Shown: piece after piece, positions 11,285 to 24,946 of the stretch | How the letters are laid out: every line of letters starts with the position of its first letter | Numbering within the stretch: position 1 is the stretch's first letter | Source of the DNA: a virus | DNA length: 64,000 bases | Strand: one strand, 5' to 3' | Virus record (IMG/VR): IMGVR_UViG_3300042914_003164 | Location: 1 to 64,000 of that record | Program-made: the position numbers and the translations under genes | Notes under the pieces: generated by a model | What the model was told of the DNA's origin: nothing | What the model saw: the letters and a program-made list of their open reading frames with translations, nothing else | The model's database searches: none

Positions 11285-12505
11285 TCACCCTTTTACGCAT
11301 AGCACCTGCCTAAGGGTGTGTCGAATTTCCACGAGGTCGTCTTGCGCGGCCATCACGGAATCAATGTCTTTATAGGCAGCGGGAGTTTCATCAATAACCC
11401 CTTCGTCCTTTCTGCATTCCACGCCTGCCGTGGCGGCAATGTGATCCTCTACGGTAAACCTGCGCTTCGCCTCTCTCCGGCCCATCACGCGACCAGCGCC
11501 GTGAGAGCAGGAGCAGAACGATTCGCGGTTGCCTTTACCGGCAACGATGAAGCTTTTGGCGCCCATGCTGCCGGGAATGATCCCTAGCTGACCCTTCCTA
11601 GCGGAGACGGCACCCTTGCGGGTCAGCATCACTTCAGCGCCAAAATGACACTCGCGAGCCACATAGTTGTGATGACAGTTTACAGCTTCGCAATCGCAAT
11701 GAAATGGCTTGGGAACGGCTTTTTTTAAGGCCGTGATGGCCGCCTGCATCATCAGGTAGCGATTTAGCCTGGCATAGTCCTGTGCCCAGTCAACGGCTTC
11801 AACGTAATCATCAAACAGCTCGCTTCCTTCTGCCAGGTAGGCAAGGTCGCGGTCGGGCAAGTTGATGAAGTGCCGCTCCATTTCCTTGCGGGCGCGATCA
11901 ATAAAATAGGTGCCAATGCGGTTGCCGATACCACGGCTACCCGAGTGCAGCATCACCCAGACGCGCTGATCTTCGTCAAGGCAGACCTCAACAAAGTGGT
12001 TGCCTCCGCCCAGCGTGCCGGCATGGATCGCGGCGCGGTTAGCGGCTTTTCCGATGGGTGCGTGCTTGGCAACAATGTCGCTCAGGCGCGGCTGGAGCAA
12101 AGCCACAGCGTCAAGAGCATAAGCCGGCGGATCCTTGTGGGCGCCCTGATCACCGGGTCCCCCGTCATTAGTCCTGCCATGGGGGATGGCCGCCTCGATT
12201 GCGCTGCGCAATGGTCCCAGGTCGTCAGGCAGGTCGTCAGCGGTCAGTGTTGTGCGCTGAGCGCTCATGCCACATCCAATGTCAACGCCAACCGCAGCAG
12301 GGATAATTGCACCCTTTGTGGCGATCACCGAGCCAATGGTGGCGCCCATCCCCCAGTGGACATCGGGCATGGCTGCAACGTGGTGGTGAATGAATGGCAG
12401 CTCGGCCAGATTGCGAAGTTGCTGCAGCGCCTTGTCCTCAACGGGAACACCTTGAACCCATGCCTTGATGGGGGCTCCAGACGTGGGAAAAAACAGTGGA
12501 TCCAT
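11285..12505 (-). CDS. rtcB: RtcB-family 3'-phosphate/5'-OH RNA ligase
   Basis: Signature motifs MPDVH, VGVDIGCGM, GGGNHF, HSGSRG, HHNY, PGSM, SCSHGAGR, C-terminal VKG. Confidence 0.95.
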   Translation of the reverse strand: MDPLFFPTSGAPIKAWVQGVPVEDKALQQLRNLAELPFIHHHVAAMPDVHWGMGATIGSVIATKGAIIPAAVGVDIGCGMSAQRTTLTADDLPDDLGPLRSAIEAAIPHGRTNDGGPGDQGAHKDPPAYALDAVALLQPRLSDIVAKHAPIGKAANRAAIHAGTLGGGNHFVEVCLDEDQRVWVMLHSGSRGIGNRIGTYFIDRARKEMERHFINLPDRDLAYLAEGSELFDDYVEAVDWAQDYARLNRYLMMQAAITALKKAVPKPFHCDCEAVNCHHNYVARECHFGAEVMLTRKGAVSARKGQLGIIPGSMGAKSFIVAGKGNRESFCSCSHGAGRVMGRREAKRRFTVEDHIAATAGVECRKDEGVIDETPAAYKDIDSVMAAQDDLVEIRHTLRQVLCVKG

Positions 12506-22758: not shown

Positions 22759-23117
22759 CTTCTCGTGTTCTTGACCTTCTGAAGCGCCTCCGCTCTCGCG
22801 GTGGTGACGTTGCCGTTGCCATGGAGCCTGATGACGATCACGACCTGTTCTCGTCGCCCCCGCCACCTCGATCTATCCGCCCTCACTGGCTTGGCTACAG
22901 GTCCTCTCCACAGCGTCACGGGTACGCCAAGCCGGAAGGCCCCGGAGACCTAAGCCCTGAGGGCCTGTGCTGGTGGTGGGCGCTGATTGATGCTGCGGGG
23001 TCGGATCCTTCTACGTGGGGCTACGGCTGGAAGCTTGGCCGCCCCGAGGATCACCCTGGCGCCGACGCGCTCTGGCTTCCGTACTGTGCCATGGCAGATC
23101 CGGGCTCCACGTCTTGA
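22755..23117 (+). CDS. hypothetical protein (C-terminal WLPY..M.DP)
   Basis: Coupled. Confidence 0.6.
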   Translation: MTSRVLDLLKRLRSRGGDVAVAMEPDDDHDLFSSPPPPRSIRPHWLGYRSSPQRHGYAKPEGPGDLSPEGLCWWWALIDAAGSDPSTWGYGWKLGRPEDHPGADALWLPYCAMADPGSTS

Positions 23118-23151
23118 GCGGTCGCAGCCGTGTTACGATCGGCTCAGGTAA

Positions 23152-23190
23152 AGAGGGAGGGGGTGGCACTGCTGCTCCCTCTTTTTTCTT
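23152..23190 (+). terminator. terminator-like hairpin
   Basis: AGAGGGAG...CTCCCTCT then T-run. Confidence 0.6.
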
Positions 23191-23294
23191 GTTAAACTCG
23201 AATACAAAGGTTTGACACTAAGGTTTCAGCTTTCGCTACAGTTTCTTCGGCTGGCTTCGCGGCCACTCAACACCCCCTGTCTTTTTTGGTCACG

Positions 23295-23534
23295 ATGTCT
23301 GTTCTTCACAGGATCTCGCTCCCTTCCAGACGGTCAAACCTGTTACCGATTCCCAGTCCACTGGGGGAATGGGAGTGCTGCGCCGACGAGGTGCATAGCT
23401 TTTATGAGCCGATGGTACAGACGACTTTGGCCATCGACGCCGATCATACGCTCCATCTGTTTTGCGAGGCAGATCAGGTAGATGCGGCCATTGAGGTTCT
23501 TAGGTTGAAGCTGGCTGAGCAGTCTAGCAATTGA
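23295..23534 (+). CDS. hypothetical protein
   Basis: 79-aa ORF immediately upstream of structured region. Confidence 0.55.
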   Translation: MSVLHRISLPSRRSNLLPIPSPLGEWECCADEVHSFYEPMVQTTLAIDADHTLHLFCEADQVDAAIEVLRLKLAEQSSN

Positions 23535-23545
23535 CGGTAGTTACA

Positions 23546-23579
23546 AGAAAGACCCGAGGCCGAAGCTCCGGGTCTTTCT
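23546..23579. terminator. possibly bidirectional terminator
   Basis: AGAAAGACCCG/CGGGTCTTTCT 11-bp stem; C-UUCG-G loop on - strand. Confidence 0.7.
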
Positions 23580-23580
23580 G

Positions 23581-24135
23581 TGATCCTTCGCGCTTGCCGA
23601 ATGGGTCGAGGGCGCAACTGTGGATCAACCAGTTCAGGGGTGATCAATCCCTGGCCTGCAAACACAGGGCTTTACCCGATGCAGAAACTGGAGACTTCCG
23701 GTCTGTGCAGAGCGGGAACACAACCCGGAGATTCCTACTATCGCGTCTAGCGCGGATTCAGAACCAAAGAGAGGGTTGTGGGCGAGGGTGGGTAGCCCGA
23801 AAGTGGCAATTTGAAATTACCGGACAGGCATCCACCCCCATTTCCGACGTTTGCTAGGTTTTCCGGTTGCAACGTTGGCCAACTCCCCGGAAACCGCCTT
23901 GCTACGAGAGCTAGGTCTTTGTTGCGGCCTACGGCCCGATGGGGGCGGGCTTTCAGTCGCAACAGAAGCGTATCACGGATTGCGGGAGAAGAACACCCTC
24001 CCCCAGGTGCCTTCTTCCTGATCCGAGTTGAACCAGCGGATTCGACCAATGCAGCCCTTTTCCGGGTGAAACGCAAGCCACCATGGTCTGTCTCGGTCTG
24101 GATTGTGACTGATGACTCTTTGCGCCTCGCTTCTA
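23581..24135 (+). ncRNA. candidate large structured non-coding RNA (~560 nt)
   Basis: Back-to-back helices, long-range closing helices, three possible pseudoknots, G-U pairs on + strand; no convincing sense ORF. Confidence 0.65.
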
Positions 24136-24217
24136 TTTGATGTCTGAAGCGTGAAACTTAATAGCTTGCCAATCAAGATCTTTTCTCCTTTCTTGTTTTT
24201 GAAATAGAGGGATGCGT

Positions 24218-24946
24218 TCATTTTGTGCTGTGATTTTGTTGATTGTCCTTGGTGGACAAGGTGACAAAGCCCGGAATCCACAGCTGAGGCAGGTAGCACT
24301 CATGCTCAGAATCCCACAGCATTGACAGCTCGTGAGAGTTGTAACTGTCGAATCCCATCAAAACATTGATGAATTTTAGTTGATCTGTCTCTGGGACGGC
24401 GGAGGCAAATTCACCAAGTAGCTCAAGTACGTTCCCGTTCGACCGTATCTTGCCGTATTGATGCAGGCGCCCCCTCAGCTCTGTGGAGATTTGCCTGGCC
24501 TGCTTTTCTGTAATCCTTGGCGGCACAGAAACTTGTAGCCAGGCTGGAACCGAAAGCAATCCGTTGTAGCACTCCCAAAAATCACTAGGCCCCCAGATCA
24601 TGCGATCTATGGTCTGGATGTGCCTTGCTTGCATCAGGCGCTGCTCCAGCTCCCTGTCTTCAGGGTTATCCCAGTCCTTTGCATGAATCCGGCGATTCTG
24701 CTCCCAGAGTTGCCAGAAGACCTTTTGCCGAAGTTCACCAGCGGTGCCCTGTTCGATAACTGAAAGGTTGCCGTAGCTGATAGCTGAAGATTCGTTGCCG
24801 GTTGCTTTTGCCCAGTTGCAGTAGGTGTACTGAGTCCAACCATTAGCCAAGCGCCAGTTGCGCAGCATTCTTCCAAATGCTTTGCGGCAGCTTAGTAGGC
24901 CGCCCTGCGCCTCTTTGTAGGTTTTTGGTAATACCATAAAAGTCAT
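24218..24946 (-). CDS. XRE-like HTH protein
   Basis: 'FGRMLRNWRLANGWTQYT....ISYGNLSVIEQG'; start ATG 24946 (ATGA overlap). Confidence 0.55.
   Translation of the reverse strand: MTFMVLPKTYKEAQGGLLSCRKAFGRMLRNWRLANGWTQYTYCNWAKATGNESSAISYGNLSVIEQGTAGELRQKVFWQLWEQNRRIHAKDWDNPEDRELEQRLMQARHIQTIDRMIWGPSDFWECYNGLLSVPAWLQVSVPPRITEKQARQISTELRGRLHQYGKIRSNGNVLELLGEFASAVPETDQLKFINVLMGFDSYNSHELSMLWDSEHECYLPQLWIPGFVTLSTKDNQQNHSTK

Follow-up and report, generated by a model that had tools for sequence, protein, structure and literature searches.

The abiF motif (RF03085) occurs in RCd22 of C. difficile, an antitoxin of the AbiF/Abi_2 HEPN toxins, and this abiF-motif RNA was reported to neutralise the AbiF toxin through direct binding (bioRxiv 10.1101/2025.04.15.648962). 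An abiF RNA is about 100 nt long, has two motifs, and usually directly precedes a terminator. In Pectobacterium, phage TE evades ToxIN via a pseudo-ToxI RNA (review PMC5086642), a mimic of the type III antitoxin RNA ToxI, which is composed of tandem 36-nt repeats. GOLLD and ROOL are conserved structured phage RNAs of several hundred nucleotides. Here, a locus on a 109,690-bp IMG/VR phage record is set against these systems; "the window" denotes the whole stretch of DNA that was analysed, i.e., the first 64 kb of that record. The phage genome is siphovirus-like, carries an RtcB gene (11288-12421, minus strand) and no RlaP gene, and encodes an XRE regulator that resembles Cyanobium proteins. Our overall reading, held at a probability of roughly 55%, is that the minus strand of this locus encodes a modular hairpin-chain RNA of about 420 nt, carried as an accessory cassette and possibly serving as a decoy.

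The locus lies between convergent genes, with the plus strand genes ending at or before 23534 and the minus strand regulator gene ending at 24218. An earlier sequence-only reading had described about 560 nt with no credible sense gene, which holds for 23535-23972 (438 bp) and fails for 23973-24135, a segment antisense to a real 82-aa gene. All ORFs within 23535-23972 score like out-of-frame shadow ORFs under a 3-periodic Markov coding model trained on the long genes of the same phage, and none of them has a Pfam or PHROG match; four ORFs of about 108 aa were dismissed as genes on these grounds. Compared with the homologous loci L066, L072 and L074, 23541-23960 is 79-85% identical, whereas the adjacent 82-aa gene is only 65-67% identical. 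The substitutions in this part are spread evenly over the positions modulo 3 (about 20/21/21), showing no codon periodicity, and the 33-84 gap columns break every frame. Because its identity exceeds that of the adjacent gene, its substitutions are even and its gaps are frame-breaking, 23541-23960 is judged to be non-coding and under selection. On the far side of the terminator described below, the last plus strand ORF (23286-23534, 82 aa, beginning with TTG) scores -0.02 for coding, which is borderline, and no homolog of it was found in five related genomes. Clearly coding plus strand genes stop at 23117, and the roughly 400 bp of 23118-23534 may be further non-coding DNA or may hold some shorter gene.

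The other boundary is set by the small gene at 23973..24221 (minus strand, 82 aa, P0121; coding score +0.064). It stood out as a minus strand frame at 23976-24176, for which a database search gave the called 82-aa protein P0121 and a 66% identical homolog; the homologs range from 56 to 66% identity. Five orthologs align gap-free, and the substitutions are distributed as about 22/15/45 over the three codon positions, which is what marks 23973-24221, as judged from its sequence, as a real gene of an uncharacterised small-protein family. An exhaustive profile search with the 82-aa protein collected 14 representative small proteins at E<=0.001 that share a C-terminal motif of the type GR(I/L)RW(F/I)NS...WGRV. 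The AF2 model of the protein is all-beta and of moderate quality (pLDDT 75.7), with no PDB fold match; the protein has no Pfam match, and a search of the protein atlas came back empty. For lack of a Pfam and a fold match, the idea that the RWFNS motif is cold-shock-like was dropped. The ATG of the small gene overlaps, as ATGA, the TGA of an XRE-family helix-turn-helix regulator gene (24218..24946, minus strand, 242 aa from ATG, the longest ORF reaching 25087), which has a coding score of +0.13 and 248 homologs, some of them named XRE family transcriptional regulator from Cyanobium. The regulator gene, with a promoter-like site nearby on the minus strand (25237-25209), is the first of the minus strand unit that ends in the RNA.

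Since the small gene is real, 23973-24135 read on the plus strand is antisense to coding sequence, and this bears on the alternative that the RNA is a plus strand molecule of about 560 nt (23581-24135) held together by long-range helices and several pseudoknots. This alternative, which is the form in which the RNA was first described, we consider unlikely: the codon-type divergence of 23973-24135, coding on the other strand, means that the long-range partners are not conserved as RNA. Both long-range closing helices fall away in this manner, their partner region being coding on the other strand, and 23770-23780 pairs instead as hairpin stem H7 (with 23719-23726). The helix CGGAT..GGGAGAAG/CTTCTTCC..ATCCG lies in the same antisense region, and the pseudoknots TGGGGG/CCCCCA and GCGAGG/CCTCGC are removed for the same reason. 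The extent of the RNA is thereby shortened from about 560 nt to about 420 nt, one end of the former interval being a protein gene.

Homologs of the element were reached through the small protein, which led to loci L066-L071, and then with two invariant blocks used as patterns, which led to further contigs. In L066-L071-type loci, the DNA similarity continues for about 430 nt beyond the stop codon of the small gene, up to a hairpin. About 10 distinct IMG/VR contigs carry look-alikes of 23541-23960, which represent only about 6-7 independent sequences in 2-3 clades and are arranged in four gene contexts. In the window, the regulator gene, small gene, element and terminator face a convergent ORF. 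In L066, L072 and L074, tail-fibre-like genes, a 91-aa gene, the small gene, the element and the terminator face a convergent RlaP gene. In L071 and L080, a DprA-like gene is followed, with or without the small gene, by the element. In the L073 type (with L076, L085 and L086), an RNR-like gene, a 246-aa gene, the element, a tRNA-like structure, an HU-like gene and a phosphoesterase gene are all co-directional. The RlaP nucleotidyltransferase gene (PF10127, E 4.8e-88) that converges on the element in three contexts is located at L066:5688-6587, L074:262-1161 and L080:1662-2561. An L066-type element, identical over the compared region, is also present on L087 (JBIKMF010000522.1), binned in a 'Phycisphaerales bacterium' MAG of the same lake series, which is probably a mis-binned phage contig.

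The element was absent from the relatives of this phage found by terminase (31 loci, with five whole records and ten more, searched by blastn, nhmmer and covariance model R1), which are 74-89% identical in terminase amino acid sequence and include one complete and one 88% complete genome without the element. Since it is missing even from complete or near-complete relatives whose terminases are 78-87% identical, the element is accessory. Searches for relatives through the regulator protein, an 817-aa protein and the DprA-like protein returned none, or none with the element, and blastn against the INPHARED phages gave no match. Together these observations suggest an accessory cassette that probably moves among related lake siphophages, whose hosts are probably picocyanobacterial. 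The related phage G003 has, next to its XRE regulator homolog and again with a 4-bp overlap, an unrelated 146-aa gene (L050:3835-4275) in place of the 82-aa gene and the RNA, and the position after the regulator reads as a swap point for accessory cargo.

The distribution also bears on the possibility that the RNA is the partner of the 82-aa protein in a joint ribonucleoprotein. The two are neighbours in five distinct loci and change context jointly, as such a partnership would predict; the gene is missing beside the RNA in L080 and the L073-type copies, however, only half of the RNA accompanies the gene in L071, the protein family is wider than the RNA, and the 82-aa protein has no match to an RNA-binding fold or domain. 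We regard a ribonucleoprotein as quite unlikely.

Evidence for a conserved secondary structure comes from the alignment of these copies. RNAalifold on 10 sequences predicted 74 pairs, 11 of which are changed on both sides. With the pseudoknot included, the structure has 79 pairs in 13 helices and keeps 97.0% of cells paired; in slid controls, made by shifting the pair partners by 1-3 columns, the share is 36-48%. Changes on both sides affect 13 pairs, against 1-4 in the controls, and the covariation score is 0.167 against about 0.055. The 79-pair structure was derived from the same sequences that were used to score the pairing and the independent lineages are few, and several of the both-sides-changed pairs may each be single events. 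With 9 sequences, noise swamped a naive search for covarying helices. The single-sequence MFE z-score of 23541-23960 is -2.71 on the minus strand and -2.47 on the plus strand, which fails to separate the strands; for the interval first proposed, the z-score is weak (-1.85 on plus, -1.17 on minus). Across about 6-7 independent sequences, the homologs keep their base pairs via compensatory changes, and 23541-23960 lacks conservation of the codon type, as is generally expected of a structured non-coding RNA.

These compensatory changes, along with the strand asymmetry of the G-U pairs, indicate that selection acts on a transcript in single-stranded form, which makes it very unlikely that no RNA exists and that the locus is instead a conserved DNA element (an origin, or a site of recombination or attachment) or a protein gene that has decayed or been overlooked. 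Such a view could appeal to the several ORFs of about 108 aa on both strands and to the movement of the element between contexts like mobile DNA. However, those ORFs score as shadow ORFs and lack homologs or domains, indels break every frame, and tandem repeats or iterons are absent from 23300-24300.

The architecture appears to be beads-on-a-string, with about ten conserved hairpins, one local pseudoknot and no single compact fold, in place of the globular structure closed by long-range helices that had been drawn by hand. Read 5' to 3' on the minus strand, the RNA of about 420 nt (23541..23960) consists of a 5' hairpin, H1, H2 with the pseudoknot, H4-6, H7-9, H10-11, H12, H13, the last hairpin and the terminator. 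The 5' hairpin (23924..23960) has a GCGAC.../...GCCGC stem, with an invariant A-C mismatch in this outer stem when read on the minus strand, and an inner CCCG/CGGG hairpin; in L073-type copies it is swapped for another (GCGACAG/CTGTCGC). H1 (23897..23915) has 7 bp, three of which are changed on both sides. The next module (23844..23895) contains H2 (23895-23887 with 23866-57), which corresponds to the earlier helix GGTTTTCCGG/CCGGAAACC and is invariant except for two broken pairs in L080, being conserved without covariation. The candidate pseudoknot CCGACGTT/AACGTTGG, also proposed earlier, pairs the H2 loop (23878-73) with 23849-44 and is retained, with two positions changed on both sides and 88% of cells paired.

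The long hairpin H4-H5-H6 (23784..23839) has 100% of cells paired and five pairs changed on both sides; three of these lie in H4, which is the previously noted helix GGGTGGGT/ATCCACCC. In relatives, the apical loop of H6 is enlarged by a 25-nt insertion. The long irregular hairpin H7-H8-H9 (23719..23780) is the most sequence-invariant part and includes AGTAGGAATC; a pair between alignment columns 238 and 252 was considered as an extension of H9 and dropped, being C-A in most sequences. H10-H11 (23675..23716) has a variable tip and two pairs changed on both sides. Of the short hairpins H12 and H13 (23637..23670), H12 has a UUCG tetraloop in five relatives and H13 has an invariant UGAUC in its loop. 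H13 is the helix CAGGGG/TCCCTG of the sequence-only reading, and its TGATCC/GGATCA is the outer stem of the last hairpin; each is supported in homologs by conservation or covariation. CTGCA/TGCAG and CCGG..TGTG/CACA..CCGG, on the other hand, clash with the conserved hairpins H12, H10 and H11. The last hairpin before the terminator (23581..23627) is diverged and occupies the position of the abiF motif in L073-type copies.

Whole modules are missing naturally in several relatives: L071 has no 5' half, L085 and L086 have no H7-H9, and L066, L080 and L071 have no last hairpin. In L073-type copies, H10-H11 is duplicated (direct repeat CCCGCTCTGC); in L085 (3551-3678) and L086 (12094-12221), one H10-H11 copy is gone along with H7-H9, a loss that looks like recombination between the direct repeats.

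The strand and the ends of the RNA are inferred from sequence. The RNA lies most probably on the minus strand, which is favoured because the alifold energy, the G-U asymmetry, the one-sided changes, the gene orientation, the terminator, a -10-like box and the strand-specific abiF matches all point that way. The alifold energy of the core is -149.4 on minus vs. -134.1 on plus. Among pairs predicted both ways, 21 are G-U on minus vs. 8 on plus, and a count from the pair tables gave about 16-18 columns whose one-sided changes stay paired only on minus vs. 7 only on plus; in H7 and H9, one-sided changes stay paired as G-U only when read on the minus strand. The upstream genes are co-oriented with a minus strand RNA in all four contexts, and the abiF matches of L085, L086 and L076 fall on the strand that corresponds to a minus strand element. 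The G-U asymmetry that had been cited for a plus strand RNA is thus reversed in the alignment. What remains in favour of a plus strand RNA is its own z-score for 23541-23960 and the few pairs that favour that strand or are G-U only there (the A-C position of the 5' hairpin, position 3 of the pseudoknot, columns 238/252). Against these stand the G-U asymmetry, alifold energy, gene context and strand of the abiF matches, all of which favour minus, and the fact that a plus strand RNA would begin at a terminator without a promoter.

The terminator hairpin (23543..23581, minus strand) has a z-score of -4.87 and an invariant U-rich 3' side (TCTTTCTTGT); it is 93-95% conserved, with an A-U to G-C compensation in L072. 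A simple terminator scan did not flag it. From these features, it is most readily interpreted as the intrinsic terminator of the minus strand unit, and it probably also stops the convergent plus strand genes. At the other end, alignment reading suggests an extended -10-like box TGaTACGCT (23967..23975, minus strand), the TGA of which is the small-gene stop codon. This putative box always lies 5-6 nt before GCGAC, its conserved form being TGnTAnnnT, and two-hexamer promoter scans did not flag it. The window's box is weak (TACGCT) and those of relatives are better (TGaTAGAAT, TGcTATAGT); for this reason, the RNA here would probably be made mainly by read-through from the regulator/small-gene unit. 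A T-arm-like sequence (GGGGGTTCAAGTCCCTCC, L073:6590-6615) lies upstream of the -10-like box in L073-type loci; no tRNA was called there, and it may be a tRNA remnant.

In the main rival explanation, the element is only a structured 3' untranslated region that shields the regulator/small-gene mRNA from 3' exonucleases and insulates convergent transcription, having no trans role. In three of the four contexts, the element closes an operon of the same direction at its 3' end and faces a convergent gene; the window's -10-like box is weak, and no hairpin is more stable or better conserved than the terminator. However, 400 nt kept at 79-85% identity, with loops that do not vary, are more than a stabiliser would require, and the L073-type element lies between co-directional genes, behind the good box TGcTATAGT, with a tRNA mimic as its end and no terminator. 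Relatives moreover carry abiF, a specific protein-binding motif. A role as 3' untranslated region alone is therefore a doubtful reading of the locus, if a serious one.

The abiF matches are found at the last-hairpin position of sister copies, namely L085 (44.5 bits, E 6e-7), L086 (40.2 bits) and L076 (39.3 bits), all above the RF03085 gathering score of 37 bits. They cover all 37 nt of the model and keep its consensus loop CUCUCAACGAU intact; the last hairpin of L073 gave a below-threshold match. In the window, no abiF match was obtained at E<=10 in 23300-24400, and the best score in the genome, 14.1 bits, lies elsewhere. The abiF shape consists of a 6-bp outer stem, a 3-bp inner stem and the conserved 11-nt loop CUCUCAACGAU. 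The last hairpin of the window keeps a 6-bp outer stem (23627-22 / 23586-81) and has a 6-nt 5' internal loop; its loop region is CUCGACCCAUUC, not the abiF CUCUCAACGAU, and its MFE fold pairs part of this loop region, differing from the abiF shape. No Abi_2 toxin gene (PF07751) was found in the window genome (G000) or in the records of L073, L076, L078, L085 and L086, and what follows the last hairpin in the window is the terminator and a convergent ORF. By score, loop and toxin gene, the window hairpin is not a member of abiF.

In L073-type copies, the abiF hairpin is followed immediately by a cloverleaf of 80 nt (L073:7013-7092; L085:3427-3506, minus strand; z -3.69). Acceptor, D and T arms (GGTTCGATTCC) are present, but the 'anticodon' stem is 11 bp long and its loop has 5 nt. 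The cloverleaf matches tRNA-Sec weakly (E 0.02) and is not called by ARAGORN, which reported neither tRNA nor tmRNA for the window and the relatives. The cloverleaf looks like an anticodon-less tRNA mimic, and it could give the RNA a processed 3' end.

The Rfam search of the window returned no match at gathering score and only noise at E<=10 (GOLLD, ROOL, OLE, raiA, HEARO, RNase P, tmRNA, group I/II introns and tRNA among the models considered). The core of the first description, a conserved structured non-coding RNA belonging to no known family, is thus borne out by the covariation, the lack of codon-type conservation and the Rfam search, and we regard the element as a new conserved structured RNA family of narrow distribution.

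As for function, our best guess, a tentative one reached by analogy, is anti-defence decoy activity. In the proposed mechanism, the minus strand RNA would be made at the end of the regulator/small-gene unit by read-through, possibly also started from its own weak extended -10 box, and would end at the intrinsic terminator. Whole hairpins are gained, lost or swapped among relatives, and the RNA would act in trans as a decoy or sponge, its hairpins occupying host RNA-binding defence proteins. Because relatives carry the abiF motif without an Abi_2 gene, they seem to hold the antitoxin as an orphan decoy, and pseudo-ToxI serves as the model for the action that their abiF module would have; the sister copies present the abiF antitoxin motif without the AbiF toxin and then the tRNA mimic, whereas the window keeps the hairpin with a diverged sequence. 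RNA-repair genes nearby, RlaP convergent to the element in L066-type loci and RtcB in the window genome, were counted for this proposal. The single module behind the decoy proposal is one that some members of the family lack, and the best conserved hairpins (H7-H9 and H10-H13) appear to resemble nothing known.

A more far-reaching form of the proposal, speculative and rather improbable, is a multi-decoy array. Each conserved hairpin would imitate its own host RNA ligand, be it an antitoxin RNA (abiF, for instance), a piece of tRNA or some other guide or substrate. Several RNA-binding abortive-infection nucleases would thereby be disarmed by one transcript, alongside RNA repair by RtcB/RlaP, with modules shuffled to track host defences.

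If the RNA is a decoy, a large modular form would join the short list of RNA-based phage counter-defences, and orphan abiF-type antitoxin RNAs, tRNA mimics and RNA-repair genes would be linked in freshwater cyanophages. Even without a function, the locus provides a new family of conserved structured RNAs, which has clear modules, deletion variants that occur in nature and a pseudoknot candidate, together with a new family of small proteins (that of the 82-aa protein). The correction also matters, given that the strand, the extent and half of the hand-drawn helices were wrong.

Set against the described systems, the element resembles abiF in that the last hairpin of its sister copies matches the motif, and in that the window hairpin sits directly before a terminator. 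It differs from abiF in that the motif makes up a single, dispensable part of an RNA of ~420 nt, and in that no Abi_2 gene is present after the element or elsewhere in the records searched. As with pseudo-ToxI, relatives carry an antitoxin-like RNA without the toxin; ToxI-like tandem direct repeats (~34-36 nt), however, were not found in 23300-24300, and the escape phenotype belongs to phage TE. Compared with GOLLD and ROOL, the element lacks a covariance-model match and is confined to about 10 contigs of related lake phages, and it is a chain of hairpins with dispensable modules. Like them, it is a conserved structured phage RNA of several hundred nucleotides, with copies in relatives that adjoin tRNA-like structures.
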